From a virus: a DNA stretch of 64,000 nt. Location: IMG/VR virus record IMGVR_UViG_3300032249_000480, positions 1 through 64,000 of that record; one strand, written 5' to 3'. The notes under the pieces are model-generated. The model was not told the origin of the DNA. It saw only the letters and a list, made by a program, of their open reading frames with translations, and searched no databases. The position numbers and the translations under genes were made by a program. How positions within the stretch are numbered: the stretch's first letter is position 1; every line of letters begins with the position of its first letter. This document shows positions 392 through 14,155 of the stretch, one piece after another.

Positions 392-416
392 CTATATATC
401 ATAGCATATTTGAGAG

Positions 417-470
417 TTATCCACAAGTTTATACCCTTAAAAATGTAAGTTATCCACAGGTTTATCCACA
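417..470 (+). promoter_or_regulatory. three perfect DnaA boxes
   Basis: TTATCCACA at 417-425, 450-458 and 462-470. Confidence 0.8.
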
Positions 471-507
471 ATTAAATCTTACTGATATTTTTATTACTTG
501 ACCTAGA

Positions 508-543
508 AGTGGAGTGAAGTGGAGGATAGTGGAGTATAGTGCG
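508..543 (+). promoter_or_regulatory. MraZ-type direct repeats
   Basis: AGTGGAG at 508, 518 and 528, plus AGTGCG at 538, at exact 10-bp period; matches the GTGG(A/T)G-N4 MraZ repeat. Confidence 0.6.
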
Positions 544-641
544 TATTTATAGATGGCGGATCGTAATGGGCTTTTTTCAAACCACCTATCTCCAAACCTT
601 TCAAACCTTTCTATCCCCATATCCCCCATATCAGGCTATGG

Positions 642-670
642 ATTATACTATCAAACCACCTATTTGTCAA
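642..670 (-). promoter_or_regulatory. consensus sigma70/SigA promoter pointing left
   Basis: TTGACA-17 nt-TATAAT on the minus strand. Confidence 0.75.
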
Positions 671-830
671 CTATATTTGACACAAATAAAATGACAATAT
701 TTGGACAAATTTGCCAATAAAATAATATAATTGTTTGATATTTATTTAAAAAGATTTAAAAAACCAGGAAAAAATTGTTTGATAATTTATGTGGTTTGAT
801 ATGGTTATACTAGGGGGATTTGGTAGTATT

Positions 831-1016
831 TTATAAGTCCCGCGATTTTTTGAACGCCCTCGTAATCCCCCTGGCAAAAAAGCGGGGGATATAAAGAAGG
901 ATCGTAATACCTCTATAGATAGCATCTTCAAACCTTACATCTGGATAGTGTTCTATATGACGAGACTCATATCGTTTTTCATTTAGAATGTTTGAAAAAT
1001 ATCTTCTTGGAGTCAT
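831..1016 (-). CDS. hypothetical protein (start revised to 1016)
   Basis: ORF with TATAAT (1023-1028) 6 nt upstream of ATG 1016. Confidence 0.45.
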   Translation of the reverse strand: MTPRRYFSNILNEKRYESRHIEHYPDVRFEDAIYRGITILLYIPRFFARGITRAFKKSRDL

Positions 1017-1174
1017 ATATATATTATACACCTATAGAAAGGTTTGACAAAGAAAGGTTTTTGTGATAGGAAGGTTTGAAAAATAGTTCCAGGATTTTGA
1101 AAAGTTTGTTCTTAATGTCTGGGAGATAAAATTGTTTGATCGTAATGATCTATAGGAAGGTTTTCTCGGGCACC

Positions 1175-1441
1175 CTACTCTGTTTTACCCGCTTCAAAAA
1201 ACATAGCCTCTAATGAATCATAGTCCTTTTCCTCAATGCCCAGTGCATGTAGCAATAAGATATAAGTTTCATCAACATAGACCTCTGCTCTTGGTGTGGC
1301 GGCAACAATCTCCTCATAGATTAAAGAAGCCAGCGGCAGACCCAAATCATTGTAGTCTACAAAATCTTTAAAATCTTCCTCAAACCTGTAATCTATCCAA
1401 ACCTGATTTAAGATTTGACATTTAGTTTTGAAATCCATTAT
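1175..1441 (-). CDS. hypothetical acidic phage protein
   Basis: ORF track; start MDFKTK follows an AAAGG RBS. Confidence 0.65.
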   Translation of the reverse strand: MMDFKTKCQILNQVWIDYRFEEDFKDFVDYNDLGLPLASLIYEEIVAATPRAEVYVDETYILLLHALGIEEKDYDSLEAMFFEAGKTE

Positions 1442-1658
1442 GAACCTTTCTTGCGTATTCAATGTCTGCTTTAATATTCATTTCGTGGGACGCTGACTCT
1501 GCTACTTCTATAAATCTACGAAAATGTAAATATGGCATAGCAGTAGCAATGTAGTATCCAACTCGTTCTAGGTCTAACGTTAAGTCTTGTATTGCTTGTG
1601 TTATTTTCTTAGCCGTTCGTTCCTCTGATGTAGATACGCTTGTCTGTACTCTTCTCAT
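1422..1658 (-). CDS. hypothetical protein
   Basis: ORF with GAGGGGG RBS and upstream TGGTACAAT. Confidence 0.65.
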   Translation of the reverse strand: MRRVQTSVSTSEERTAKKITQAIQDLTLDLERVGYYIATAMPYLHFRRFIEVAESASHEMNIKADIEYARKVHNGFQN

Positions 1659-1773
1659 AGTCCCCCCTCATTTCCATTGTACCAAAAAGGATTGGGGGGA
1701 GCAAACCCACCACAGTCTTGCTCCCACCCAGTGCATGGCCTTGACCCTAAGATCCATGCTGCTCATTGTAAAT

Positions 1774-2121
1774 TTAAACTAGCGCTGCGCTGTATGCATT
1801 AATGAATGCGTCCCATTTGACAGGTACAGAGTCAGTTACTGTTTTATTAATAAAATCAATAACTACCGTCTGCTCACCTAGGTCATAGTTATCACCATTA
1901 ATTGCATATAGGCCAAAGCCTGTCTCATCCAAAATGCTATGCTGTATAAGGTAACTAATCATCATACGTGCTCCATATGAAGAATCACCCCAACGTGGCT
2001 TGGCATGCTGCAGGGCACCTGCAATATCTGTTTCCCATGAATCTTGGCCCCAGTGACTATATAGTACTACACTAGGTCCGTCCATAGAGTCTTTAAATAC
2101 AAAGTTAATCCGTGCTCCCAT
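1774..2121 (-). CDS. hypothetical phage protein (start MGARINF)
   Basis: GGAGGA RBS; TAATG coupling with the upstream ORF; LYSHWG motif. Confidence 0.7.
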   Translation of the reverse strand: MGARINFVFKDSMDGPSVVLYSHWGQDSWETDIAGALQHAKPRWGDSSYGARMMISYLIQHSILDETGFGLYAINGDNYDLGEQTVVIDFINKTVTDSVPVKWDAFINAYSAALV

Positions 2122-2258
2122 TATTCCTCCTCCATTGGTGCGACATCTATACCGCAACCTTCGCATACTTCAGGGTATTCTCCAACTACCTGATAACCAC
2201 ACGCACCGCAGTTACCAACAAAGAATACATCATCGCCCTCAAACATTACATCTGACAT
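2121..2258 (-). CDS. small CxxC zinc-ribbon protein (45 aa, not in ORF track)
   Basis: MSDVMFEGDVFFVGNCGACGY...CEGCG; TAATG-coupled on both sides. Confidence 0.6.
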   Translation of the reverse strand: MSDVMFEGDDVFFVGNCGACGYQVVGEYPEVCEGCGIDVAPMEEE

Positions 2259-2689
2259 TACTTATCCAATCCTACTAGGGTCATTTCTTCAATAGTAGCA
2301 CACTCAGGACATTTTTCCAAATCCTGCTCATCAAAGGCATCTCTAATAATATTATCAGGGTCCTCAAACTCTGCCTGACAATTCTCACAATAGAACCAGT
2401 TATGGCTAACTCTGATTTGGATATCAGTGTCAGGTGGGCAGGGTACCTCAGTAATGAAATAACCAATCCTATTAACAATATGCCAGCCATTCCAGATATA
2501 GGAACCGCCGTCGTCTCCATCTCCATATGTCCAGATATGAGCAGGGTCAGCCTTCTTTACAAACTCTACCTCATCGCCATATGTCTCAAACATAAGACCA
2601 TCAAAGGAAGCATTTGTATCTATATTATTAGGAATAGGCTTGTAAGTCTCAACCCATACATCATAGTCTAATTCAATAAAGTTATTCAC
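2258..2689 (-). CDS. hypothetical protein with C-terminal zinc ribbon
   Basis: GTG start after GAGG; HIVNRIGYFIT motif; two CxxC. Confidence 0.7.
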   Translation of the reverse strand: MNNFIELDYDVWVETYKPIPNNIDTNASFDGLMFETYGDEVEFVKKADPAHIWTYGDGDDGGSYIWNGWHIVNRIGYFITEVPCPPDTDIQIRVSHNWFYCENCQAEFEDPDNIIRDAFDEQDLEKCPECATIEEMTLVGLDK

Positions 2690-2966
2690 CAAATACCTCT
2701 TTACGGTTTTTGATATCTTCCTTGGCAAATGCGATAGCATAGGTTAGGGCATACAACTCAGATAGTGCGTCAAGGTATCCTGTAGCCTCTGTACGTGCCA
2801 TAGAATCCATAGCCTCACCTGATTCTTCCTCTACCTCAATACAACGGTCAAGAATCTGTTCAGCCTCATACATCATAGTCTTTAGATGACCATGAAGAAT
2901 GTCTGCTCCGTCCATACCCATTTCTACTTGTTTCATTAGATATGGGTCAAGGGTCATATTAGTCAT
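2682..2966 (-). CDS. hypothetical protein
   Basis: ORF with GGAGG RBS. Confidence 0.65.
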   Translation of the reverse strand: MTNMTLDPYLMKQVEMGMDGADILHGHLKTMMYEAEQILDRCIEVEEESGEAMDSMARTEATGYLDALSELYALTYAIAFAKEDIKNRKEVFGE

Positions 2967-3111
2967 TTAATACCTCCAAGTAGTGTTTGGATACATGAAT
3001 GGCTCCTTCTAGGTAAGGAACAATGCTATCAGCACCGTCCTCGTTTTCCAAATCCTGTTCAAGGGATATGGCGTGTAGTCTGATATATTCTCTAAATGTG
3101 TCTAGGTCCAT
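2959..3111 (-). CDS. hypothetical protein (50 aa, leaderless, not in track)
   Basis: MDLDTFREYIRLHAISLEQD...; TTGTCA-17-TATAAT ends 6 nt before the ATG. Confidence 0.6.
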   Translation of the reverse strand: MDLDTFREYIRLHAISLEQDLENEDGADSIVPYLEGAIHVSKHYLEVLND

Positions 3112-3114
3112 ATA

Positions 3115-3351
3115 TTAATTATAAGGGTTGGTGTTGATTTTGACAACTTTTGGGGGTGTGACCTTAATCACAGGCTCATAGAACCTGCTTTCAATATCTT
3201 CCACACTGACATATTGCATTTCTCTACCACAAGGGCAGGTCATGCTAACTATACCATTAGGAAAACCATACCCATCCCTGGCGGTAAATTCAAGAAGAGA
3301 ATCACATTCAAATGGATCACAGACAAATGTATACTTAGCCCAGTTCTGCAT
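3115..3351 (-). CDS. hypothetical Cys-containing protein
   Basis: ORF with AGGGAG RBS; CDPFEC and CPCG. Confidence 0.6.
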   Translation of the reverse strand: MQNWAKYTFVCDPFECDSLLEFTARDGYGFPNGIVSMTCPCGREMQYVSVEDIESRFYEPVIKVTPPKVVKINTNPYN

Positions 3352-3502
3352 CTCTTAACTCCCTTACGTAATCTAATATTTCATCTACCGCAAAAAGTTG
3401 TCCTTCAAGGTGCAAAGGATTTTCATCCATAGGATATTCATTAATTGCTTCGCCTATGTCTATTTGACATTCAACAAGATAGTTAATGATGTCGTCAAGC
3501 AT
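3335..3502 (-). CDS. hypothetical acidic protein (55 aa, not in track)
   Basis: MLDDIINYLVECQ...; TAATG-coupled. Confidence 0.55.
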   Translation of the reverse strand: MLDDIINYLVECQIDIGEAINEYPMDENPLHLEGQLFAVDEILDYVRELRDAELG

Positions 3503-3663
3503 TATTCTCCCCAATATTCCATAATAGTATTAAGAGTGATGTGTAGGTTACAGTCACACTCTCCACAATTCATATTTTCCATAAACTCAAAATGGTTAAG
3601 GTTATCTTCGTAGATAGTTGTAACTAGTTCGTCTATTGTATAAGGTTTGTAAGTAGTGGTCAT
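3502..3663 (-). CDS. hypothetical protein (53 aa, leaderless, not in track)
   Basis: MTTTYKPYTIDELV...; TTGACT-17-TAAAAT ends 6 nt before the ATG. Confidence 0.6.
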   Translation of the reverse strand: MTTTYKPYTIDELVTTIYEDNLNHFEFMENMNCGECDCNLHITLNTIMEYWGE

Positions 3664-3779
3664 AGATTAATTTTAGCAGTTCAGCAAAAAAAAGTCAATC
3701 TACGTAATAAGGTTTGGGGAAAAATCTAATGTGATCTTAATCACAAAAACCGAGAAATGTCAAACCCGAGAAATTTTTG

Positions 3780-3853
3780 CGAAGTGTACGGGACTTGAAC
3801 CCGTGATCTCTACCGTGACAGGGTAGCGCATTAACCAACTATGCTAACACTCC
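3780..3853 (-). tRNA. tRNA-Asp(GTC)
   Basis: GGAGTGT/ACACTTC acceptor stem, CTACC-CTGTCAC-GGTAG anticodon arm, GGTTCAAGTCC T arm; CCA not encoded. Confidence 0.95.
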
Positions 3854-3860
3854 AATTGGA

Positions 3861-3889
3861 GAGCAGTTTTAAATCATGCTCAGGATTTA
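3861..3889 (-). ncRNA. repeated H-type pseudoknot element, copy 1
   Basis: UAAAUC-CUGAGCA-U-GAUUUA-AAACUGCUC. Confidence 0.65.
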
Positions 3890-3892
3890 TTG

Positions 3893-4909
3893 CTATGCTA
3901 GTTGCATAACATTTTGTACAACTTTTAGCAGACGATTCTTTTCTGCGTTAATAGCAGGGTCAAATCCACTAGCACTTGCAAGGATAGATTCGTTAGAACC
4001 ACCGCGAGCAGAACGATACCAGTCAAGGCGCTCAGTTAGTGCATTGAAAGCACCCCACGCATTACCAGCAATCATGCCATTGAATTCACCAGTGTAAATG
4101 TCGTTAATAACATCTACCTTGTTTTCCCATTTCTTGAATGAGCCTTTTGCATCTGCATCAGGCTTTGGGTATGCTGCAAGAATAATGTCGTTAAACATTT
4201 TAGCATCAACAGTCTTTTCAATCATTGCCTTAGCCATGATATCAAATTCGTCCATGTACTTATTAGCCATGCCAAGAGTTTCACGTGCAATTTGCACTTT
4301 ACCATTGGCAGTTTGTGTGTGACGAATCTTGAAAGATTGCTTGACGCCATCTTTTTTCTTAGTACGATTTAACGCAAGGTTAAGAGTATTAGCGCACACA
4401 ACACGAACAGGTGTGATGCTTGCTTGAATTGCGATTGAGCCATCGTGTGATGTGTTAATGAGAAGATAAGTTTTAACCTTATCTGCTACACCATTTGGGT
4501 CTAGTACAGTTTCACGCTCTAGTGCTAATGCACCAAATACAACGCGACCACCCTTGATTGAGCCAGCGGTTTCCCAACGTCCACCACCATCTAGTATGTT
4601 ATCACCAAATGAGAATAAATCTTCATTCTGTAAAACATGGTAACGCTCACCAACAACACCCAAAACATCTGTTTGTGTATTTGTTGTAGGATTTGTGCGA
4701 ACAACGTATTGGTATTCCTTGTCGCTTGTTAAGTGTGATGGGATAGGCATGTCTTCAAGACGAACATTCCAACCATTTAGATTTGCTGCTGCGAGCATTT
4801 CTGATGTTGATTTTTCTTCTGTGAAAACAGTACCCAATCCATGCCATGCGGGTTCACGGAATGATGCAAAAGATGCAACGCCGTTTTGAGTTTCTAGGTC
4901 ATGTGCCAT
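3893..4909 (-). CDS. DUF932 / TIGR03299 family phage-plasmid protein
   Basis: MAHDLE, PAWHGLG, ETAGSIKGGRVVF, SHDGS, TPVRVVCANTL and RHT motifs. Confidence 0.9.
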   Translation of the reverse strand: MAHDLETQNGVASFASFREPAWHGLGTVFTEEKSTSEMLAAANLNGWNVRLEDMPIPSHLTSDKEYQYVVRTNPTTNTQTDVLGVVGERYHVLQNEDLFSFGDNILDGGGRWETAGSIKGGRVVFGALALERETVLDPNGVADKVKTYLLINTSHDGSIAIQASITPVRVVCANTLNLALNRTKKKDGVKQSFKIRHTQTANGKVQIARETLGMANKYMDEFDIMAKAMIEKTVDAKMFNDIILAAYPKPDADAKGSFKKWENKVDVINDIYTGEFNGMIAGNAWGAFNALTERLDWYRSARGGSNESILASASGFDPAINAEKNRLLKVVQNVMQLA

Positions 4910-5067
4910 GAGTTATTTCCTTTTCTGTTGTTGTTATTTTAAGTATAACAGTATGGGCTGACAAATGCAAATCAGTATAGTTAAACATAGGACATTTCGG
5001 ACATTTTTTAAAGGGCTCTTAATGTGATGTTGATCACGTGGGCCCGAGATTTTTAAAATAAAAAAGT

Positions 5068-5097
5068 GAGCCGTTTACATGGACACTGCTCAGGTCC
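5068..5097 (-). ncRNA. pseudoknot element, copy 2
   Basis: GGAC-CUGAGCA-GU-GUCC-AUGU-AAACGGCUC. Confidence 0.6.
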
Positions 5098-5114
5098 CTT
5101 TTAGTAGCCCCCTA

Positions 5115-5555
5115 CTAAATATCTATTCTGTCAATTGAACATGACACATATGAAATAGAATCTGAATCATAGTCAATAGTATCAAAGTCAACATTATTAA
5201 CTATATCATTTGCGTCTTCTTCATTACGTGCATTAACAGTCATTGAGTAAGTTACAGAAACTTCAACCTCAAATTCTTTTGTTAAATCAAAACCACAAAG
5301 ATTAGCAATTTCTTCTGCTTGTGATTCTGTTATTTGGCCATTCTCTAGTTCATCAAGCGTCCATTCTTGCATTGCAATACGGATGTTACCAATCTCTGCA
5401 GCATTATGCATATCACGTTGTGATACACGTGCAGAGTGCTCTTCTAATTGCTTGATACGTGCTAGGTTTTCAACAAGAGACTTCTCTAAGAATTCTCTAG
5501 TCATGTAATGATTATCAATTGGCATATCTGATATTGTTGTATGTACTTGGTCCAT
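5115..5555 (-). CDS. hypothetical protein with coiled coil and acidic C-terminal domain
   Basis: ORF with GAGG RBS downstream of a TGTCAG promoter. Confidence 0.7.
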   Translation of the reverse strand: MDQVHTTISDMPIDNHYMTREFLEKSLVENLARIKQLEEHSARVSQRDMHNAAEIGNIRIAMQEWTLDELENGQITESQAEEIANLCGFDLTKEFEVEVSVTYSMTVNARNEEDANDIVNNVDFDTIDYDSDSISYVSCSIDRIDI

Positions 5556-5682
5556 GGGGGCCTCTTCCTGTTAGTTGTTATTAATATAAGTCTAGCATGG
5601 GGCACTGACAAATGCAACTTAATCTTAAAGCATCTTAACCCGTAATGGGTGATCTTGGTCACATTTTCTCGGACCCCAAAAT

Positions 5683-5709
5683 GAGCCTTTTTAAATCTTG
5701 CTCAGGATT
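5683..5709 (-). ncRNA. pseudoknot element, copy 3
   Basis: AAUC-CUGAGCA-A-GAUU-UAA-AAAGGCUC. Confidence 0.6.
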
Positions 5710-5757
5710 GCTCTATAGTATTTCTATAATCGCCCTAATCAGCCTGGCGAATTTTAT

Positions 5758-5928
5758 TTATTTAGTTGTCTTTACCATTGCGAAACGCTTTGAGCCATTC
5801 GCTAGTGTTAAGCCAACACGAGTTACTGTATTGTTAATTGGAGCGAATGAGTTAATTCGTCCAGTTACGCCAGCAGTTGATGTTGTGAATAAATCACCTA
5901 ATTGGTATGTGTATCCTTGTAGAGTCAT
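5758..5928 (-). CDS. small SH3/KOW-like protein (56 aa, not in track)
   Basis: YQLGDLFTTSTAGVTGRI, similar to 6563..6730; AAGGA RBS. Confidence 0.65.
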   Translation of the reverse strand: MTLQGYTYQLGDLFTTSTAGVTGRINSFAPINNTVTRVGLTLANGSKRFAMVKTTK

Positions 5929-5960
5929 TTTGTTTTCCTTTTCTTTGATGGTGGTTTGGT

Positions 5961-5989
5961 GAGCAGTTTAGCATGACTTACTCAGGTCA
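5961..5989 (-). ncRNA. pseudoknot element, copy 4
   Basis: UGAC-CUGAGUA-A-GUCA-UGCU-AAACUGCUC. Confidence 0.6.
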
Positions 5990-6001
5990 GTATTTAGTTG
6001 T

Positions 6002-6424
6002 TTATAGATAACGGGCTACTGCGTTGTAGGTAGAAGTATTAACTACTTCCTCGTCCGTCATTTTGAGAATACGGATAGCATTAGAGATTTCCTCTTTCTG
6101 CTCGTTGTATGTGTGTTGATGTAAAGAAGTGTATCCACGCTCAGGTTCAGCAGGGAACTCACCTTCTTTAACTGTTAAATCAAAATCAACATTGAGTGTC
6201 TTGTTCCATGAGCGATAGTTAGTGCGTAGGTTTTCTGCCTTAGCAATTCTATCTACGGCAAACTTAACAAGTTCTTTACGCCATGCTTCCATAGCCTTCT
6301 CATACTTTGCTTCGTTTGCTTCTTGTGAAGTCCAGTCAAGTTCTAGTTTGTTTAGTGTTTGTTCTAGTGCCTTGATTACTCGCTCAGTAGGTATCTTTAC
6401 TGAGATTGCTTTTCCTCTTGCCAT
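6002..6424 (-). CDS. hypothetical helical phage protein
   Basis: ORF with AAGGA RBS and TGTCAG promoter. Confidence 0.75.
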   Translation of the reverse strand: MARGKAISVKIPTERVIKALEQTLNKLELDWTSQEANEAKYEKAMEAWRKELVKFAVDRIAKAENLRTNYRSWNKTLNVDFDLTVKEGEFPAEPERGYTSLHQHTYNEQKEEISNAIRILKMTDEEVVNTSTYNAVARYL

Positions 6425-6562
6425 TTGTTTGTTTTCCTTTTCTTTGATGGGTTATTTATAGTATAGGGGGTGGGTCTGACATTTTCCCCATAAGGGGGGA
6501 GAGTTCTTACTTACGACATTGGGCTAGATACTCTCCTAAACTGCCCCTGTTTCGTTATTTAA

Positions 6563-6730
6563 TTAGGACTTAGGTGTCCAAGTTGTGTAACGGGTTGTGC
6601 CATTAACATCTAACTTAACGCGAACATTTCCATTTGCCTGTGGCGTAATTTCCTGAATTGTTCCTGTTACCTTTGACTTTTGTGATGTGTAGGTATCTCC
6701 TACTTTGTAAGTTGCTGTTGCGACTGACAT
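6563..6730 (-). CDS. small SH3/KOW-like protein (start MSVATA)
   Basis: YKVGDTYTSQKSKVTGTI; AAGGA RBS. Confidence 0.7.
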   Translation of the reverse strand: MSVATATYKVGDTYTSQKSKVTGTIQEITPQANGNVRVKLDVNGTTRYTTWTPKS

Positions 6731-6931
6731 GATTTCCTTCTTTCTGTTATTCAGGGACTTTCCCTTATGTATTAAGTGTAACATTTCCTACTGACATTTA
6801 CAACATTTATCCCTAGATTTCTCACTATTTGAGACGCTCAGGGGGTGTGATTTATGTCACTCATGTCCAGACCCCATGAATAGGAGCATGGCTATTAGTA
6901 GTGCTAGTATAGTTAGAGATAGCATTTATCC

Positions 6932-7654: not shown

Positions 7655-7659
7655 GGTGG

Positions 7660-7806
7660 CTACTCTCTTTCTTTCTTCAATTGTAACATTAGGGACTGAC
7701 ATTTCTTTCTGTCATATTTCTTTTTATTGGGTATTGCAGAGGCAGCATTAGATCTACGTAATTCCATAAGGATACGTAAAGATTCAGGGGTCTTTTTTTG
7801 TCTCAT
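7660..7806 (-). CDS. small basic protein (48 aa, leaderless, not in track)
   Basis: MRQKKTPESLRILMELRRSNAASAIPNKKKYDRKK...; TTGACA-17-TAAGAT ends 6 nt before the ATG. Confidence 0.65.
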   Translation of the reverse strand: MRQKKTPESLRILMELRRSNAASAIPNKKKYDRKKCQSLMLQLKKERE

Positions 7807-7854
7807 GTAATAATCTTAGCAGTTCAGGAGAAAAATGTCAAACTACGTAAAGTC

Positions 7855-7875
7855 TGTGGATAAGCCTGTGGATAA
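7855..7875 (-). promoter_or_regulatory. tandem DnaA boxes
   Basis: TGTGGATAA at 7855 and 7867 (also single copies at 9203, 11353 and 11395). Confidence 0.75.
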
Positions 7876-7888
7876 CGTCCCGAGATTT

Positions 7889-8110
7889 TTATTCAGCAAA
7901 GACAAACAGATCAACAGAATCTTCAAAATTTAATTCTGCAATGTCTTGTTCACCAAAATCATTAACGTGTTTTATAAAATAGTTATCGCCTGTGCCATCT
8001 TGTTCAATAGAAACAATGGTAACGACCTCACCATCAATTGCAATGAGATCGTCCTCCATTAATTCTGAAACTTTAAATTTGCCTGCATTTAGCAATTCCA
8101 TAAGTTTCAT
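7889..8110 (-). CDS. small beta-barrel-like hypothetical protein
   Basis: ORF track; true start may be ATG 8101 (leaderless). Confidence 0.65.
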   Translation of the reverse strand: MKLMELLNAGKFKVSELMEDDLIAIDGEVVTIVSIEQDGTGDNYFIKHVNDFGEQDIAELNFEDSVDLFVFAE

Positions 8111-8122
8111 TGTAACATCCTT

Positions 8123-8215
8123 TTATTGATTTTCAATTTCATCTAGTATCTGCCATAGGACGGTTTCCAAAGCAGGTGTTGCTTCATCTAATAACTCTTG
8201 GAGTGTTTTGCTCAT
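8123..8215 (-). CDS. 30-aa hypothetical peptide (not in track)
   Basis: MSKTLQELLDEATPALETVLWQILDEIENQ; ATGA-coupled. Confidence 0.45.
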   Translation of the reverse strand: MSKTLQELLDEATPALETVLWQILDEIENQ

Positions 8216-8565
8216 TCTAATCCCAATCCTAACTCAAAGCCTTCATCCTCATTCATGGATACAATGCAATCGCTGCAATCGCAATCCCAAACATGGGGCA
8301 ACCAAAAGTCTAAGTGGTGTTGGTCAACAATAGCACTAGCAGGTGCGTGAGTCATTCCTTTATAAAGAATCTGAAAGTCACCAACCATAGGCATTTCAAT
8401 CATGCGGTTATAGTCCTCATCATAGAAAGCGTCAATAGCCTCAATGCAAGGCTTGACCATTTCTGCTGGTATTGGTGGATAGTGATTACCCTTTAAGTGA
8501 TAAAGTAATTGTGTTTCTAAATCCAAAACTGAATCTTGGATACCTAGTGCTGTTACTGCTCCCAT
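8212..8565 (-). CDS. hypothetical phage protein
   Basis: HLKGNHYPP motif; translational coupling. Confidence 0.7.
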   Translation of the reverse strand: MGAVTALGIQDSVLDLETQLLYHLKGNHYPPIPAEMVKPCIEAIDAFYDEDYNRMIEMPMVGDFQILYKGMTHAPASAIVDQHHLDFWLPHVWDCDCSDCIVSMNEDEGFELGLGLE

Positions 8566-8780
8566 TATTTTGTTACGACCTTTCGTCCTTGGCGGTAGAA
8601 TACCTTAGTGTGCATTTTGCCACTAGGTTCAGATAGATTAACTGTAGCATATTCATCAGCAAATCCCCAATCTATATGAGTATTAAATTCATTAACTGCC
8701 GTTAATGCATCTGAGTAGCGACCTGTCCAATGAGGTGCGTTGCCATCATAGGCAACTGTTATAGCGTAGTTATATTCCAT
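8565..8780 (-). CDS. hypothetical protein
   Basis: AAGGAG RBS; TAATG coupling. Confidence 0.7.
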   Translation of the reverse strand: MEYNYAITVAYDGNAPHWTGRYSDALTAVNEFNTHIDWGFADEYATVNLSEPSGKMHTKVFYRQGRKVVTK

Positions 8781-8965
8781 TATGCGTTCTCCTTAGTTTT
8801 GAATAAGTGGTGATATTCTTGTATTTCATCAGCAGGGATATTGTAAGTATTACACTCACACGCCCATAAATCATAGTCTACATCATTTCCTGCAAATTGC
8901 CAACCATTACCATAGCAGTAGTGGCAGGTTAAAATACCAAGAATAGAATCTTTGAATTTTCCCAT
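8780..8965 (-). CDS. small Cys-rich protein
   Basis: CxxCxGxG...CEC; similar to 9669..9788. Confidence 0.65.
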   Translation of the reverse strand: MGKFKDSILGILTCHYCYGNGWQFAGNDVDYDLWACECNTYNIPADEIQEYHHLFKTKENA

Positions 8966-9093
8966 TAGTAATACCAATCCTCTCCAAGAGCCTTTTCAGC
9001 GCACCAATCAGTATAGTGCTTATCGCACATAGTTTCAACACTAGCGTCTATCGTGTTTATATTATTTTTTGTAGCGTAACAGATATTACACAT
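8965..9093 (-). CDS. small Cys/His protein (42 aa, not in track)
   Basis: MCNICYA...MCDKHYTDW; AAGGA RBS. Confidence 0.55.
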   Translation of the reverse strand: MCNICYATKNNINTIDASVETMCDKHYTDWCAEKALGEDWYY

Positions 9094-9247
9094 AAGTTTT
9101 CCTTTCTTAGAATAATCTAAGCCTATCAGATTAGACTGACACTTTCAAGTTACAAACACCATTTCAGGGGTATTCTGGGTGTGTTTTTAATCACATCTTA
9201 ACTGTGGATAACTTGTGGACGACACGCCGAGATCTCGGGAAAAATTT

Positions 9248-9274
9248 GAGCAGTTTATATTCTTGCTCAGGAAT
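9248..9274 (-). ncRNA. pseudoknot element, copy 5
   Basis: AUUC-CUGAGCA-A-GAAU-AU-AAACUGCUC. Confidence 0.65.
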
Positions 9275-9283
9275 TTATTTTAA

Positions 9284-9457
9284 TTAATCTGTTTTAGTAC
9301 AAGCGTCCCAAAATTTATTTTCATCAAACCTTGGATTGTCTGAACTAAACCATTCACTAAATTCAAAAACTAAATCTTGAAAAACATGTGAGTCAATTCC
9401 ATCTACAAATTGATTTAAAATTTTTGCGGTTTCAACATAGTCTTTGCGAGTCATCAT
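9284..9457 (-). CDS. small phage protein (MTRKDY...DNPRFD...F..AC type)
   Basis: Recognisable small phage-protein motif; TAATG-coupled. Confidence 0.7.
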   Translation of the reverse strand: MMTRKDYVETAKILNQFVDGIDSHVFQDLVFEFSEWFSSDNPRFDENKFWDACTKTD

Positions 9458-9669
9458 TAGTTTTTGCCAACTTTCAAAACAGCCCATTGATTATTTTCGT
9501 TAAGTTTATTTAAAAAGCCTTCTTCTTCAAGAGCAGAAAGAAAAGCCCCACGAAGCATTTGCTCCATTTGTTCCTCAGATAAACTAAGAAAAATATTTAG
9601 CAAGTTAGCAGGCATTTTGAATTCGTCAATTTCAGTGACAAGGTTTACAGTGTGGTTTAGTGTTATCAT
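9457..9669 (-). CDS. hypothetical protein
   Basis: ORF with GAGGAG RBS. Confidence 0.65.
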   Translation of the reverse strand: MITLNHTVNLVTEIDEFKMPANLLNIFLSLSEEQMEQMLRGAFLSALEEEGFLNKLNENNQWAVLKVGKN

Positions 9670-9788
9670 TAGTTATTCTCCTCTACACAAGCACAAGGTT
9701 CAACATGGTAGTCTTGGTCATTACCAAAAAAGATGTAGCCTTGACCAAAACAGTCATTACAAGGAACAGTCATTACTGAGTTTATCAT
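9669..9788 (-). CDS. small Cys-rich protein (39 aa, not in track)
   Basis: CNDCFGQG...CAC; coupled on both sides. Confidence 0.55.
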   Translation of the reverse strand: MINSVMTVPCNDCFGQGYIFFGNDQDYHVEPCACVEENN

Positions 9789-9976
9789 TACTTCACCAAT
9801 GCCTTTCCGCGTAGTGTTCCGCTAATACCTAAAGAGTCGCAAGCAACCTTTACAGAAATACCAACAGGCAATTTCTCAGGGTATGTGGAGATGAATTGAG
9901 CAACTGCTCCCTTACTAGGGAGAGCGATGTTTTTAACCTCACCGCTAAAGGTTTCTAGTTTCATAGTATAAGTCAT
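9788..9976 (-). CDS. hypothetical protein
   Basis: AAGGAAG RBS; TGTCAG promoter. Confidence 0.7.
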   Translation of the reverse strand: MTYTMKLETFSGEVKNIALPSKGAVAQFISTYPEKLPVGISVKVACDSLGISGTLRGKALVK

Positions 9977-10068
9977 TTTGACTTCCTTTCGTTTTGTTTA
10001 TAATCCTAGCCTACCATAGGCTACTGACATTTTTTGTATTTCTAGGGGGTGTGGCGATGTGAGTTACC

Positions 10069-10191
10069 TCACAAAGCCCCCTCTTGGAATAACCCTAACT
10101 CTAAGGTTAAGAGTTCATCAGGTGTGGCTTCTGATAGGTCAACCCAACCAGCACCTTTTTCATCTAGGCGAAAAATCTCAATGTATCCCAT
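10069..10191 (-). CDS. 40-aa hypothetical protein (not in track)
   Basis: MGYIEIFRLDEKGAGWVDL... Confidence 0.5.
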   Translation of the reverse strand: MGYIEIFRLDEKGAGWVDLSEATPDELLTLELGLFQEGAL

Positions 10192-10194
10192 TAG

Positions 10195-10392
10195 TTATTC
10201 ACCTACCTTTACGGCAACAGTTCGCCATTTGTTGCGGTAGATAGAATTAACCTCAACCAAATAACTTTCTGTATTATCTCCATACCATACGGCACGATTA
10301 TCTTTTTCAGCAGATACAATCTCTCCTGTTAAAGTTTTTGAGCGATAGACTTTACCAATTAGCAAGTCTTCTATTTTGTATAAGTTAGCCAT
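10195..10392 (-). CDS. small SH3-like protein
   Basis: IGKVYRSKTLTGEIVSAE; AAGGAAG RBS; TTGTAA-17-TAAACT promoter. Confidence 0.7.
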   Translation of the reverse strand: MANLYKIEDLLIGKVYRSKTLTGEIVSAEKDNRAVWYGDNTESYLVEVNSIYRNKWRTVAVKVGE

Positions 10393-10605
10393 TATTAGCC
10401 ACTTCCTTTCTTTATTTTCTTACTATGTAAGTTTAACAGATTTAGGAGAGATTTACAACTTACTAGCCAGTAAATCCAAATAATGAGACGCTCAGCGATG
10501 TGATTTAGCCCACAAACTTTCTGTGATCTTAACCACATCGTACGTAAAGCGACACGCCGTCTGCGCCGAGAAAAATCGCAGAGTTTATTTCTACGATCTT
10601 AGTTT

Positions 10606-11226
10606 TTATTTATTTTTATTTATTAAAACAGAAATAAAAACGGCAGCAACAAGAATAAATGCTAACACATGATAAGGTGTGGCAAATAAATTTAGAATTA
10701 AGTTTTCCATTTTTATTTCTCCATTACTGATTTGATAATTTCTAATTGTTTAACAGTGAGAAGCGCAGAAGCACTACCCCAAAGTCCAACGTATGATAAC
10801 TGATTACCATATTTTTTATCTGCTAATTCTTTTATTTCTTTTAGCAAAGAATCTTGTTTATTAGTATTCATTATTCATCACACTCACAATCTTGGTATGG
10901 GTTAAAGTCGCAGAATTGGCAACCTTGTTTTTCAAAGTGATTATCGCAAAAGTAGCGATACTGTAATTCACCGCAACAGATGAAGCGTTCATTGTTAGTT
11001 AGATAGAAACTATTTGAGCCAATAGGCGTAAGAGTTAACATAGTCATTACTTAGACACCGCCCAACGTGTCCACATAGGTAGACGCTCAGGGTCAGTATC
11101 GTTATACCAACGCTCAATGTTATTTTCACACATTTCACAAAACGTGAATTGTGTATCGTTAAAGTCTGAGATAGCAGACTTATTAGGGACGTGTGATTTA
11201 CACACTTGGATAATTGTTGAATTCAT
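10606..11226 (-). CDS. four coupled micro-ORFs (11047..11226, 10871..11047, 10713..10871, 10606..10710)
   Basis: 59, 58, 52 and 34 aa; TAATG coupling; the first follows the 11277-11298 promoter; two are Cys-rich and the last is hydrophobic. Confidence 0.55.
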
Positions 11227-11440
11227 TTGAATTCCTTTCTAGTTCAGAAACCTTTTCTGACTTTCTTTATACTAGAAGTATAACAGGTACCACTGACATT
11301 TACTGGACAGTAACTAGGACAAAACGGACATTTGGGATTGTGATGTACGTCATGTGGATAACTTGAGCGTAAATTCGTAGTGTGATGTGTATCATGTGGA
11401 TAACTTTTTGGCCCGAGAAAATGTGGGCTATATCACATGC

Positions 11441-11487
11441 GACACGCCGTGTTTAGACTTGACTTTTGGGGGGTAGTGTGATAGGAT
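11441..11487 (+). promoter_or_regulatory. rightward promoter 1 with GACACGCCG (WhiA-like) site
   Basis: GACAC starts 18 nt before TTGACT-17-TAGGAT. Confidence 0.7.
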
Positions 11488-11540
11488 ACTCCTATACAAA
11501 TAAATAGAGATAGATAAGGTTAATGAGCCTACCAAATAAG

Positions 11541-11556
11541 GCGAACAGATGTTCGC
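11541..11556. promoter_or_regulatory. LexA SOS box (Gram-positive/actinobacterial type)
   Basis: GCGAAC-AGAT-GTTCGC matches CGAAC-N4-GTTCG. Confidence 0.6.
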
Positions 11557-11591
11557 ATGAGCGTAGCAAATAAGTAACCTAAATCACACAA

Positions 11592-11638
11592 GACACGCCG
11601 TAGCAAGGCTTGACTTTTTGACATTTCTATGGTAGTAT
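11592..11638 (+). promoter_or_regulatory. rightward promoter 2 with GACACGCCG site
   Basis: GACAC starts 18 nt before TTGACT-17-TAGTAT; same geometry as promoter 1. Confidence 0.7.
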
Positions 11639-11752
11639 TCTACTATAACAATTAAATAAGAAATCCTAAGTGAGCCCCTAGCAATAGGGCAAATAAATTA
11701 GGTCAAGGAAATAGTTAGCACAAGGCTAACGAATTAACGAAAGGTTCACAAT

Positions 11753-11935
11753 ATGAACACTATAACTAAAGACTTAGTAGCAGAGTATGGCTCTAGCATA
11801 CTATCTAAGAATAACCCTTACCCAAAGGGTACGCTCTCACTAAGAGAGTGCCAAATCCTACTAAACAAGTATGGAGTAGAAAAGGCTACGCTAATTGTTA
11901 AGCGTCATGCCTCACTAAGAAAGGTAAGTAACTAA
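11753..11935 (+). CDS. hypothetical early protein
   Basis: ORF with GAAAGG RBS. Confidence 0.65.
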   Translation: MNTITKDLVAEYGSSILSKNNPYPKGTLSLRECQILLNKYGVEKATLIVKRHASLRKVSN

Positions 11936-11937
11936 AT

Positions 11938-12105
11938 ATGAAAATCAAATACTCACTATGGCAAGGCTCACGCCTACTAAGCATTAACAATATCGCTAGT
12001 GACATCAAGTCTATAGATGTCCTAGTCGCATCATTAAACGATAGCGAATTAGGTAAAAAAATTAAATTCGCTGCCAATGTTATGGAAATAGATACTAACG
12101 CATAG
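11938..12105 (+). CDS. hypothetical protein (55 aa, not in track)
   Basis: MKIKYSLWQGSRLLS...; GAAAGG RBS. Confidence 0.6.
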   Translation: MKIKYSLWQGSRLLSINNIASDIKSIDVLVASLNDSELGKKIKFAANVMEIDTNA

Positions 12106-12125
12106 GATATATATAACAGATCAAG

Positions 12126-12159
12126 TAGTGAGTGCTATTGTGTGCTCACTATTTTTTTT
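12126..12159 (+). terminator. intrinsic terminator
   Basis: TAGTGAGTGC/GTGCTCACTA stem followed by T8. Confidence 0.75.
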
Positions 12160-12259
12160 GTATTTATTTTTTATTTTTATGTATCATACACAAATACAAA
12201 AAATTCAGATTTTCTTGAAAATAAAAAAATATTCAGAAAATCCACGGTATACTAAATAC

Positions 12260-12592
12260 ATGGAAATCAGACCTTGGGGATACTACAAGATCCTACATAC
12301 AGACAATAACTGTCAGACAAAATTTTTGTCGGTAAATCCAGAAAGTCGTTTATCATATCAATCTCATATGTATAGAGCAGAGCATTGGTTCATAGTATCT
12401 GGAACTGCATTGGTAACAATTGAAGATGAAAAATATATTTTATATCCAGGCGATTCAATTGATATTCCACAATGCACTAAACATCGCATAGAAGCATTAC
12501 ATCAACCAGTAGAGTTTGTAGAAGTACAGACAGGTACATATTTTGGGGAAGATGATATTATTAGATTTGAGGATGATTATGACAGAAAGTGA
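12260..12592 (+). CDS. cupin, mannose-6-phosphate isomerase type II C-terminal-like
   Basis: RPWG, RLSYQSH..RAEHW, EVQTGTYFGEDDIIRFEDDY; leaderless start at 12260. Confidence 0.85.
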   Translation: MEIRPWGYYKILHTDNNCQTKFLSVNPESRLSYQSHMYRAEHWFIVSGTALVTIEDEKYILYPGDSIDIPQCTKHRIEALHQPVEFVEVQTGTYFGEDDIIRFEDDYDRK

Positions 12593-12710
12593 AAACCTTG
12601 CTGTAAAAATATTTTCAGAAACATGCTGTAATGGTTGTACATGTCAATCATCAAAAGATCATCCAATACAAGAAGAATTTGCTTTGGATGAAATTGATTT
12701 TGAACAATAA
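12579..12710 (+). CDS. small Cys-rich protein (43 aa, not in track)
   Basis: MTESENLAVKIFSETCCNGCTC. Confidence 0.45.
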   Translation: MTESENLAVKIFSETCCNGCTCQSSKDHPIQEEFALDEIDFEQ

Positions 12711-12711
12711 A

Positions 12712-12912
12712 TCACCATTTGTCAGCAGGGCATTTGGCTCTTGCCAGAGTAGTCTTTAACTCCATAAAACATCCACATAATCTACAAGTTCTAGTTGTTT
12801 GTCTAAAATGTTCACAAGTCTCACATATCGCAAGGCGATCTGCTTTTAACTGTTCTTCACTTCTTGGCTCTCTTGGATTAAGTAAATCCCAAGGTTTGAC
12901 ATCATCGCTCAT
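12712..12912 (-). CDS. DUF6171-like Cys-rich protein
   Basis: RLAICETC...CRLCGCFM..K......CP..KW. Confidence 0.7.
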   Translation of the reverse strand: MSDDVKPWDLLNPREPRSEEQLKADRLAICETCEHFRQTTRTCRLCGCFMELKTTLARAKCPADKW

Positions 12913-12914
12913 TA

Positions 12915-13517
12915 TTAAAGTATATCAAGTTTTTCGGGGGATCCAATCAAAGACTCATTTACTTTGGTCCATAACTGATATGACATACTAGGAGATATAT
13001 AAGCAGATAAGCCTATAGCATCCAAACACCATATATCTCCTTTTTGATACCACATAGCAGAGTTATAGTCAATAGATTGTTTGTCAAAGACAAATAAATA
13101 ATATATCTTGTTTTCAAATTTTTCGGGGATAGAAGACCAATCTTGGTCTGCTTTGGCTAAACATACATATAAATCTGCACTAGTATCTACAACGTGTCCG
13201 ACCATATCTTCTATGGTTTTATGTTTACCTAGCCTAGAGCCAGAGAACTTGAGTATGTTTTTCTTAATGTCATATACGCCTGATTTGACACTTATGCTTG
13301 GACCTTCATCTATAGTCATATCTACCGATACTGAGTGTGATCTGTTTGGTTTCCAATCATTATCCATACCGTTTTCTTTTAAGGCATCGGCGATTAACTC
13401 TTCTAAAAATTCACTCGTACACGGTAGACGATAGACACTATGATGTATTTGTAATTTATTTGTTAGAGCATTTGCTAAAACAGTTTTAAGGGTATGTGTC
13501 CAGTTATCATATGACAT
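12915..13517 (-). CDS. putative PD-(D/E)xK-fold endonuclease
   Basis: E-bearing helix (FLEELI) followed by VD...SVKS. Confidence 0.4.
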   Translation of the reverse strand: MSYDNWTHTLKTVLANALTNKLQIHHSVYRLPCTSEFLEELIADALKENGMDNDWKPNRSHSVSVDMTIDEGPSISVKSGVYDIKKNILKFSGSRLGKHKTIEDMVGHVVDTSADLYVCLAKADQDWSSIPEKFENKIYYLFVFDKQSIDYNSAMWYQKGDIWCLDAIGLSAYISPSMSYQLWTKVNESLIGSPEKLDIL

Positions 13518-13695
13518 CTAATCATTATAGCCTATTAGAAGTTATGAGACAACTAGTGACACTATTAGGATGCTTGCATCCATAAATTGTCATAAGGTTG
13601 TTTGAGTATCTCTATTTCGGCGGCGACTTAACAGCACTTTTATTTTTCGCAAGTACTGATATTTGCGTCTCAAATGATGATATAATAATCTTGTT

Positions 13696-13944
13696 ATGAC
13701 AATTCAAGACTGGGCCTCATTAATCGTAGCAATACTTACTATTGTTTCTTCTATCGCTTTCGGAATTAAGTGGCTAGTAAAACATTATTTATCCGAACTC
13801 CGCCCGAATTCTGGATCAAGTTTAAAAGATCAAATTACAAGACTTGAACTGCGTGTTAATGAAGCAGATGTTAGTCGTCGTGATATGGATAAAAAACTTG
13901 ACAAAATGTATTCAATTCTTATAGAATATATTGCTAAGAATTAA
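13696..13944 (+). CDS. single-TM membrane protein (holin-like)
   Basis: One TM helix, then PNSGSSLKDQI and a coiled coil. Confidence 0.55.
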   Translation: MTIQDWASLIVAILTIVSSIAFGIKWLVKHYLSELRPNSGSSLKDQITRLELRVNEADVSRRDMDKKLDKMYSILIEYIAKN

Positions 13945-14034
13945 TAATCTAATTTTCCTATTTTCCTTATATACTATATTTAAAAGATAATTTAAAAACT
14001 ATATATAGTATATTCTTTTCTTTATATATATTTA

Positions 14035-14063
14035 AGTATACACATACTTTCTTGGTTTTGCAA
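14035..14063 (-). promoter_or_regulatory. leftward promoter into an AT-rich non-coding tract
   Basis: TTGCAA-17-TATACT. Confidence 0.55.
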
Positions 14064-14103
14064 CTTTTATACCGTTGGTAATTGTTACAATTAGGTAAAC
14101 TTT

Positions 14104-14123
14104 TTATCCACAAGTTATCCACA
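14104..14123 (+). promoter_or_regulatory. tandem DnaA boxes
   Basis: TTATCCACA at 14104 and 14115. Confidence 0.75.
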
Positions 14124-14155
14124 ACCCAATTTGGCATATTATGTTATAATTTACT

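Follow-up and report, generated by a model that had tools for sequence, protein, structure and literature searches.

The presumed early region (positions 400-14130) of an uncultured lake phage appears to be a string of short transcription units, each under a composite promoter that combines a few recurring kinds of site, those for regulators that govern DNA replication, cell division, cAMP status and the response to DNA damage. We put at roughly 60% the probability that these promoters are wired combinatorially to host regulators, with titration of those regulators perhaps a side effect. Positions refer to the 64,000-nucleotide stretch analysed here (the window), part of a genome of 104,786 bp (~105 kb) with 36% GC. 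The small-gene block is presumed to be early because of its synteny with the terminal-repeat regions of cluster BE and T5-type phages. An actinobacterial host lineage, which would be of low GC, is supported because the phage carries a WhiB gene, has a portal like that of cluster BE (46% identical to the portal of Streptomyces cluster BE phages) and has GP88 in common with mycobacteriophages; GP88 is also common to the BE phages.

The perfect DnaA box TTATCCACA occurs 11 times in the genome, and 10 of these occurrences lie at 417-14123, the number given by an earlier, sequence-only reading; they are grouped as pairs or one triple, with 2-3 bp separating boxes. Recounting also returned exactly the one MraZ-type repeat (GTGGAG-N4-GTGGAG-N4-GTGGAG, 509-534), the one SOS-type box (CGAAC-N4-GTTCG, 11542-11555), the four WhiA-type GACACGCCG sites (9221, 10551, 11441, 11592) and the eight PafBC-type promoters (TGTC[AG]G-N10-TAnnnT) of that reading. 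The PafBC-type promoters are all on the minus strand (4942-11298), each precedes a minus-strand ORF, and neither they nor the WhiA-type sites occur elsewhere in the genome. The 13 CRP-like boxes reported earlier reflect a real enrichment, but their number depends on the cut-off: 400-14130 holds 3 perfect copies of TGTGA-N6-TCACA, and the count rises to 10 when one mismatch is allowed and to 18 when two are. At one mismatch or fewer there are 10 sites in the region versus 1 in the remaining 91 kb, which contains one DnaA box and is otherwise essentially without these motifs, confirming their confinement to the early region. TGTGA-N6-TCACA is also the only palindrome with exact arms that recurs at least three times in the region; TTACTGnnCAGTA and GAGCGTCTC, with 2 copies each, are candidate orphan palindromes, the class of which two had been proposed without their sequences being named.

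None of 300 dinucleotide-preserving shuffles of the region reached the observed motif counts (shuffle means: DnaA 0.19; GACACGCC[G] 0.03-0.11; PafBC-type 0.26; palindrome, tallied on both strands, 0.05-0.35). Nearly all sites lie outside ORFs, as had been claimed, even though greedy ORF calls span 84% of the region. The few 'coding' sites are within doubtful small ORFs.

Every motif corresponds to a published site of the regulator family to which it had been assigned, LexA on one site per genome. CGACACGCCG is an exact 10-mer match to the M. tuberculosis WhiA ChIP motif, published from ChIP/IDAP as GACACGCC, plus CGACACGCCGn (PMC13473873), and the family logo in these phages is CGACACGCCGT. 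The repeat at 509-534 has exactly the 26-nt pattern of the published MraZ repeat (GTGGWG-N4 x3 in B. subtilis; bioRxiv 10.1101/2022.02.09.479790). The PafBC consensus, tGTCgg(N10)tA(N3)T without a -35 (PMC8635444), has its counterpart in the phage logo AaaTGTCAG...tGnTAnAaT, likewise without a -35. PafBC-dependent (RecA-NDp) promoters of Mycobacterium and other Actinobacteria, the 'sigma adaptation' system (PMC8635444, PMC6789036, PMC11804915), share with the phage type a 22-nt bipartite element in which a GTC-containing word at -28..-23 is followed after exactly 10 nt by TAnnnT. The phage promoters, whose PafBC dependence is predicted, differ in being phage-borne, in numbering eight, in driving small genes without assigned function, in having TGTCAG almost always where the mycobacterial consensus is tGTCgg, and in often having an extended -10 with TG as well as CRP-like or WhiA boxes further upstream.

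All motif families are conserved in related phages, in a set of 80 IMG/VR loci that add up to 1.33 Mb, with controls near zero. TTATCCACA occurs 428 times, as against 12 occurrences of the word reversed, GGCGTGTC(C) 182 times versus 0 for its control, GAGCGTCTC 63 times versus 1, and TGTGA-N6-TCACA 445 times versus 1 each for N5 and N7 spacers. The PafBC-type promoter is found 662 times on the gene strand versus 66 on the opposite strand (N9 spacer, 15; N11, 2), and de novo 8-mer enrichment placed GGCGTGTC, AATGTCAG and GGATAACT among the top words. A DnaA-box pair precedes the GTGGAG repeat by about 45 nt in 40/40 relatives that reach this spot; the MraZ-type repeat occurs once per locus in 40 relatives, and spacers of 3, 4, 6, 7 and 8 nt gave 0-6 matches. 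At least 10 relatives have the SOS box in the corresponding position; its arms are invariant and its centre varies. Streptomyces cluster BE phages (Stanwilliamsviridae, for example Spelly, OR725493.1) also have small genes on the minus strand, every one with a promoter and a terminator to itself, followed in the same order by RNR, portal, protease, capsid and tape measure; their GC is 49-55% as against 36%, and their intergenic motifs are different. In the first 50 kb of Spelly none of the four site families is present, indicating that the common ancestor of the lineage did not have this wiring.

Two types of core promoter underlie the arrays: a sigma-A type (TTGACn-17-TAnnnT), and a type that lacks a -35 (AAATGTCAG-N10-TAnnnT) and in most cases carries an extended -10 TG. 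At the left end, three perfect plus-strand boxes (417-425, 450-458, 462-470) form DnaA cluster A, followed by the plus-strand MraZ-type repeat. The next features are on the minus strand. A CRP-like palindrome (3157-3172) stands 10 nt from a sigma-A-type promoter, TTGTCA-17-TATAAT (3146-3118), whose transcript is probably leaderless because the predicted start point is near the ATG at 3111. Another (3730-3745) lies 31 nt upstream of TTGACT-17-TAAAAT (3698-3670) and shares positions with the -10 of another promoter, TTGACA-18-TAAGAT (3763-3734). PafBC-type promoters lie before a DUF932 gene (4942-4963; CRP-like site with 1 mismatch at 5023-5038, 59 nt upstream), at 5589-5610 (TGTCAGTG-N8-TAGACT; CRP-like, 1 mismatch, 5648-5663, 37 nt upstream), before a 140-aa ORF at 6002-6424 (6460-6481), and at 6775-6796, where GAGCGTCTC (6831-6839) also occurs and the CRP-like site, again with 1 mismatch (6846-6861), is 49 nt upstream. 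Within 7680-7875, a DnaA-box pair (7867-7875, 7855-7863) is separated by 13 nt from a sigma-A-type promoter, TTGACA-17-TAAGAT (7841-7813), beyond which lie a conserved ORF of 48 aa and, at 7701-7680, the PafBC-type promoter of the GP88 gene.

A full array on the minus strand (9120-9229) runs from a WhiA-type box (9221-9229) through a degenerate and a perfect DnaA box (9203-9211) and a CRP-like site (9180-9195) to a PafBC-type promoter 38 nt further on (9141-9120). At 10008-10073 a perfect CRP-like palindrome (10058-10073) lies 28 nt upstream of a PafBC-type promoter (10029-10008). The unit at 10420-10559 (minus strand) has one WhiA-type box at 10551-10559, CRP-like sites at 10522-10537 and 10499-10514, GAGCGTCTC at 10485-10493 and the palindrome TTACTGGCTAGTA; its promoter has kept the extended -10 (TGtTAAACT) and lost TGTCAG. 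The last minus-strand PafBC-type promoter (11298-11277) has upstream two DnaA boxes (11395-11403, 11353-11361), each within a 33-nt repeat, and a CRP-like site (11422-11437). On the plus strand, tandem sigma-A-type promoters follow, TTGACT-17-TAGGAT (11459-11487) and TTGACT-17-TAGTAT (11610-11638), each with GACACGCC (11441-11449; 11592-11600) exactly 10 nt upstream of its -35 and with the SOS-type box CGAACAGATGTTCG (11542-11555) between them. Finally, an extended -10 promoter, TGTTATAAT (14142-14150), points towards the tail-fibre genes; a plus-strand DnaA-box pair (14104-14112, 14115-14123) covers roughly its positions -55 to -36.

The sites keep a fixed register to these cores. GACACGCC boxes sit at -53..-46 or -46..-39: in relatives, 41/42 sites have GACACGCC 10 nt from the -35, and 66/81 have GGCGTGTC 2-3 nt from it. 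On PafBC-type cores, WhiA boxes take the same two positions relative to the -10 (gaps 17 and 10 nt). Palindrome centres fall at about -53.5, -64.5, -74.5 and -85.5, in steps of about 10.5 bp. In relatives, palindrome-to--35 gaps form classes of 9/10, 21 and 31 nt; palindrome-to-TGTCAG gaps form classes of 28 (the commonest in relatives), 38/39 and 48/49 nt, and within this window by itself the values are 28, 37, 38, 49 and 59 nt. The spacers of each gap class fall into 3-7 families that are less than 60% alike, so the spacing does not derive from one inherited cassette.

At the promoters without a -35, the host DNA-damage activator PafBC would make the promoter readable to RNA polymerase, an assignment based on the sequence and geometry of PafBC promoters. 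Upstream of either core, the WhiA box, the CRP/GlxR-type palindrome and the DnaA-box pairs would act in fixed register, and one conserved composite would join a DnaA-box pair to an MraZ binding repeat. Host WhiA may act at CGACACGCCG with a WhiB-type protein, for which the phage would supply its own WhiB, a divergent Wbl that cannot be assigned with confidence to the WhiB2 type, the partner of WhiA. WhiA/WhiB co-activated promoters, as at Streptomyces sepX (PMC10243135) and in the M. tuberculosis WhiA/WhiB2 regulon (PMC13473873), likewise combine an available WhiB-family protein with the identical GACACGCC(G) box, which lies upstream of the -35 in either orientation; the phage differs in its gene targets, in two discrete registers instead of variable spacing, in its divergent WhiB and in boxes upstream of promoters that lack a -35. 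The palindrome, CRP-like by sequence, may act from one helix face, as in CRP/GlxR class I activation, with which it shares the promoter-upstream TGTGA-N6-TCACA and the ~10.5-bp periodicity; one site, in contrast, overlaps a -10. We infer the identity of the binders, the sign of regulation and the early timing. Several observations count against host wiring: TGTCAG is nearly fixed where the tGTCgg consensus is looser, WhiA boxes keep their register on PafBC-type cores, where WhiA/WhiB on sigma region 4 and PafBC may or may not be compatible, and palindrome centres are offset by ~3 bp from E. coli class I positions. The divergence of the phage WhiB and the lack of these motifs in Spelly weigh on the same side. 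The word AATGTCCG, related to TGTCAG, recurs upstream of PafBC-type promoters; it is not a known PafBC requirement and could point to another binder.

The strongest competing explanation, to which we give about one chance in four in our own judgement of the odds, is that the DnaA boxes serve DNA transactions and not transcription, either because cluster A and the iteron-rich 570-1165 region form a replication origin or because box pairs hold the first-entering DNA at membrane-bound DnaA, a T5-like injection stop. T5-like phages have 8 DnaA boxes, in pairs 3 bp apart, in first-step-transfer DNA (bioRxiv 10.1101/866236), comparable to the perfect TTATCCACA pairs 2-3 bp apart here; in BE-phage relatives the homologous small-gene block lies inside an 11-kb terminal repeat, and at least 12 TCAAACC/GGTTTGA repeats flank cluster A. 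The phage encodes its own helicase, primase and polymerase, with no recognised initiator. However, 4/5 DnaA clusters are directly upstream of promoters and oriented with transcription, mixed with other sites, in a host phylum and lineage different from those of T5, and in relatives the slot upstream of the 7841-7813 -35 holds DnaA boxes, a GGCGTGTCG box, TGTGA-N6-TCACA or ATGTCCG, so that WhiA or CRP sites can stand in for DnaA boxes. GC skew does not independently point to an origin, and the T5 model is itself unproven.

Somewhat less probable is that the sites are real cis-elements read by unrecognised phage DNA-binding proteins, for example a MotA-like activator at the -26 element and a small dimeric regulator at the palindrome, their likeness to host sites being mimicry or coincidence. 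T4 MotA/AsiA ('sigma appropriation') is a phage replacement of -35 recognition (discussed in PMC8635444), with an upstream box ~12 nt from the -10; the near-invariant TGTCAG, the orphan words AATGTCCG, GAGCGTCTC and TTACTGnnCAGTA at fixed distances, and the other intergenic motifs of a related BE phage fit such readers. About 40 small ORFs in the block lack a known fold and could encode novel DNA binders. Against this, five independent motif families equal the published sites of five regulators, three of them over 9-26 nt, which is hard to ascribe to coincidence, and the phage carries WhiB, which is known to partner the WhiA-box system. T4 makes its factors itself, whereas no such factor and no WYL, DnaA domain IV, Crp HTH, WhiA HTH, MraZ or LexA DNA-binding domain was recognised in the phage, and no Pfam DNA-binding domain among 30 ORFs of the block. 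That the sites are mainly decoys, through which replicating DNA sequesters DnaA, WhiA, CRP and MraZ and thereby keeps the host from replicating its DNA and dividing, is improbable: ten perfect DnaA boxes and several other high-affinity-type sites per genome, times copy number, directed at cell-cycle regulators and including a DnaA-MraZ composite (417-534) without an obvious core promoter, would suit titration, but titration needs no fixed register or helical phasing to -35, -26 and -10 across unrelated spacers, leaves the PafBC-type orientation bias unexplained and does not predict sites confined to one block.

The sequence-only reading, which had left open whether the phage reads host state or titrates regulators, is partly supported: the fixed distances to core promoters across unrelated spacers, needless for a pure decoy, favour the former. 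Because the phage lacks matching DNA-binding domains except WhiB, the binders would be host proteins. Under host wiring, DnaA, CRP, WhiA, PafBC and perhaps MraZ and LexA would bind the composite promoters and determine the choice and timing of the units expressed, phage DNA replication may titrate these regulators as a side effect, and the small genes would probably be timed by the state of the cell.

Regulator-type sites are concentrated in the presumed early small-gene block at ~400-14130 of the window. Motif counts over the whole genome reproduce the site counts that the sequence-only reading had given for the first 14 kb. Ten of the 11 TTATCCACA DnaA boxes of the genome lie at 417-14123, in five clusters, and the block holds all four GACACGCCG WhiA-type sites and all eight matches to TGTC[AG]G-N10-TAnnnT, each of which is on the minus strand and 5' of a minus-strand ORF. 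CGAAC-N4-GTTCG and the threefold GTGGAG repeat occur once each. The CRP-like boxes are enriched as claimed, but the 13 listed for them become three perfect TGTGA-N6-TCACA palindromes and 10 with at most one mismatch, against one in the other 91 kb. None of the observed counts is attained in 300 dinucleotide shuffles (0/300), and in the structural and replication regions one intragenic DnaA box is the only such site. The claim of an early array therefore survives the comparison with the structural region, where an equal density would have counted against it. A generic scan of the region for plain sigma-70 promoters shows no enrichment (63 against 56.8 expected), so the informative promoters are only the subsets tied to sites.

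All four motif families that we counted recur far above controls in 80 related IMG/VR phage loci (1.33 Mb in total; hereafter relatives). TTATCCACA occurs 428 times (12 for the reversed word), CGGCGTGTC 182 times (control 0) and TGTGA-N6-TCACA 445 times (one each for the N5 and N7 controls). The PafBC-type element, TGTCAG-N10-TAnnnT, is found 662 times on the gene strand, compared with 66 times on the other strand, 15 times with N9 and twice with N11. An unsupervised 8-mer screen of the family recovers the same words together with a terminator-like hairpin. The word TCTCGGG/CCGAGA has several copies in the window but is not enriched in the relatives and was set aside.

The window is the first 64 kb of a genome of 104,786 bp. 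The phage is an actinophage of unusually low GC content (~36%), because it carries a WhiB gene (genome 94664-94945, beyond the window; Pfam Whib match, 49.6 bits), its portal protein is 46% identical to those of Streptomyces cluster BE phages, and its GP88 protein (6932-7702, minus strand) is common to cluster A mycobacteriophages and BE phages. A Firmicute host, first suggested by the GC content, was dropped on these three grounds. The sole match to the phage WhiB in a genome collection is a 63% identical WhiB on a 4-kb phage-like contig, CAYZIG010000046.1, binned in a 0.7-Mb Saccharibacteria MAG; since this MAG has no other WhiB, the contig is probably a misbinned phage fragment rather than a sign of the host. 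Further phage genes are those for a DnaB-like helicase, a primase, Pol III alpha and RecA. Phage relatives fill the RecA matches, and a search of representatives returns mostly phage-type RecAs. The family is uncultured and very common in lake metagenomes, with more than 594 relatives by GP88 alone and thousands of RecA relatives.

In the BE phage Spelly a homologous minus-strand block of small genes lies inside the long terminal repeat and is followed by the same gene order; from this synteny we infer that the block is expressed early. The two ends of the genome share just 123 bp (window 1-123 and genome 104664-104786), whereas BE relatives have 11-kb terminal repeats over the homologous block; assembly may have collapsed a long repeat. 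Directly 3' of the block are genes for collagen-like tail-fibre proteins (14584-16998 and 19784-21157), and a stretch at 22-24 kb has 48% GC against the 36% background. Beyond the window, an APS-kinase (CysC-like) gene (genome 91224-91985) is accompanied by glycosyltransferases, in keeping with the lake phages with cysC and whiB of which PMC10914622 makes mention.

The published PafBC consensus, tGTCgg(N10)tA(N3)T, joins a -26 element to a normal -10 element without a -35 element, and its GTC triplet hardly varies among actinobacteria (PMC8635444). In all eight PafBC-type promoters of the window a GTC-containing -26 element stands exactly 10 nt 5' of TAnnnT. The logo of 509 unique phage promoters, AaaTGTCAG..(N)..tGnTAnAaT, shows no conservation at -35 to -30 beyond the A-rich bases adjoining TGTCAG. 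Upstream of GP88, a sigma-A-type promoter (TTGACn-17-TAnnnT), a 48-aa ORF and a PafBC-type promoter are conserved column by column in the relatives. The conserved ORF (7660-7806, minus strand) contains the PafBC-type promoter of GP88 in its 3' end, and GP88 probably starts downstream of the annotated position, 7702.

The TGTGA-N6-TCACA palindrome matches the CRP/GlxR operator both in the window and in the relatives, and it keeps to a few set distances from the promoter. Among the relatives its end lies 9/10, 21 or 31 nt from the -35 element, or 28, 38/39 or 48/49 nt from TGTCAG; the five palindrome-to-TGTCAG gaps of the window are 28, 37, 38, 49 and 59 nt. The palindrome centres thus fall near -53.5, -64.5, -74.5 and -85.5, on one face of the helix, and do so across unrelated spacers. 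A Rex operator was rejected on comparison with the Rex consensus, since neither the flanks of the palindrome nor the A/T at its positions 6 and 11 show conservation.

In Streptomyces the binding sites of WhiA lie 5' of the -35 element in either orientation, with WhiB acting as the bridge between WhiA and sigma region 4 (PMC10243135). The M. tuberculosis WhiA motif from ChIP-seq and IDAP-seq is GACACGCC, and that of an earlier data set is CGACACGCCGn (PMC13473873). The phage boxes share the GACAC core, and their family logo, CGACACGCCGT, matches CGACACGCCGn, a mycobacterial motif from which that of the host may differ. They lie 5' of the -35 element, in both orientations in the relatives and in the forward one in the window. 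For 41 of 42 forward boxes GACACGCC in the relatives, TTGAnn-16/18-TAnnnT begins after a gap of exactly 10 nt, and for 66 of 81 reverse boxes GGCGTGTC a -35 promoter begins after 2-3 nt; both forward boxes of the window, at 11441 and 11592, have the 10-nt gap. Boxes also precede PafBC-type cores in the relatives, with gaps of 17 and 10 nt, such that relative to the -10 element the box occupies the same two positions on either core (-53 to -46 or -46 to -39). When IMG/VR was scanned for a WhiA box with a -35 element, the -10 element was in place in 31 of 36 matches from the low-GC family; high-GC contigs, with 2 of 44, were discarded as chance matches.

The DnaA boxes form clustered 9-mers (10 perfect TTATCCACA boxes, family logo GTTATCCACAgG), and for some of them a role outside promoter control has to be weighed. 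Three perfect boxes at 417-470 (cluster A) adjoin AT-rich DNA and an iteron-rich stretch and may serve replication; a DnaA-trio array is not clearly recognisable here, and GC skew gives no signal. The neighbouring DNA at 570-1165, in which TCAAACC/GGTTTGA is repeated at least 12 times, in either orientation, together with other short repeats, is a candidate origin or partition-type site. The repeats enclose a perfect promoter, TTGACA-17-TATAAT (670-642, minus strand), as well as AT-rich DNA. The DnaA-box pairs might, by analogy, have another role, that of the pairs 3 bp apart in the first-entering DNA of T5-like phages (bioRxiv 10.1101/866236).

Just after cluster A, at 509-534, three GTGGWG words stand 4 nt apart in an exact match to the MraZ repeats of B. 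subtilis (GTGGWG-N4-GTGGWG-N4-GTGGWG, once per genome; bioRxiv 10.1101/2022.02.09.479790), a pattern from which that of the host may differ. The repeat occurs once per locus in 40 relatives, nearly always ~45 nt after a DnaA-box pair. It is not at an mraZ/dcw operon promoter but in phage intergenic DNA by DnaA boxes.

The actinobacterial LexA SOS consensus is TCGAAC-N4-GTTCGA, and one site in the block, CGAAC-N4-GTTCG at 11542-11555, agrees with it in sequence. In at least 10 relatives the arms of this box are invariant and the centre is variable, with the full TCGAAC-N4-GTTCGA in two. The box lies ~45 nt past the start of one promoter and ~70 nt before the next, and scores as a weak hairpin. 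Within 11500-11580 a copy of ATGAGC(C/G)TA(C/G)CAAATAAG stands on each side of it. Conserved among the relatives and read from the upstream promoter, these 60 nt as a whole may therefore be a small RNA or leader. Several genes are followed by a conserved hairpin-like element, CCTGAGCA...AAACTGCTC (3861-3887, 5683-5709 and 9248-9274); its words are the most enriched 8-mers of the family, and its probable role is that of a terminator or RNA element. A tRNA-Asp (GTC) gene (3779-3853, minus strand) sits between a hairpin and a promoter region. At 3111-3146 (minus strand) transcription from TTGTCA-17-TATAAT would start on the ATG at 3111 or directly beside it, suggesting a leaderless mRNA, a kind common in actinobacteria.

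The regulator-type sites behave like interchangeable modules. Upstream of GP88, the position immediately 5' of the -35 element is taken by DnaA boxes here and in one relative; other relatives have in their place a TGTGA-N6-TCACA palindrome, a GGCGTGTCG box or ATGTCCG. Each gap class comprises three to seven spacer families that are less than 60% alike among the relatives, indicating that the spacing is maintained and not merely inherited. Such a fixed register argues for contacts with RNA polymerase and against sites whose sole use would be to sequester proteins. The interpretation given in the sequence-only reading is partly supported; of its two explanations, cis-regulatory control of the promoters is favoured and titration of regulators by decoy sites disfavoured.

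The phage genome has no DnaA domain IV, Crp HTH, WhiA HTH, MraZ or LexA domain, no MraZ gene and no WYL domain, and Pfam detects no DNA-binding domain in 30 ORFs of the block. From their sequences, we infer that each site would be bound by the host regulator for which it is named. This assignment is weakened by several observations. The orphan words AATGTCCG, GAGCGTCTC and TTACTGnnCAGTA also stand at fixed distances; Spelly has a syntenic block, yet lacks the motifs of this family; TGTCAG is nearly invariant in the phages, whereas the mycobacterial PafBC consensus is looser; WhiA boxes are present on PafBC-type cores; and the phage WhiB is divergent and only doubtfully of the WhiB2 type, with Streptomyces WhiB giving it no higher score than WhiB1, WhiB3, WhiB4 or WhiB7 do.

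We propose, with a probability of roughly two in five, that the first-expressed block of this lake actinophage family senses the state of the host combinatorially. The promoters of the block would depend on PafBC, the host's ssDNA alarm, on host WhiA with phage-supplied WhiB, on CRP-cAMP and on DnaA, and the MraZ and LexA sites would be extra gates.

Phages are known to borrow single host regulators, LexA, DnaA, IHF and CRP among them. The earlier statement that no phage with the full panel is known agrees with the literature searched, in which no paper ties PafBC, WhiA, DnaA or CRP sites to actinophage promoters and no promoter grammar combines five or six host master regulators, notably PafBC and WhiA/WhiB. 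If the proposal is right, neither sigma adaptation nor WhiA/WhiB activation would have been seen in use by a phage before, and the promoters would offer natural, compact test cases for both. Phage whiB genes would gain a direct job at phage promoters, which would account for whiB being so frequent in actinophages. It would also suggest that the outcome of infection in the most abundant freshwater bacteria hinges on their state of growth, division and damage.
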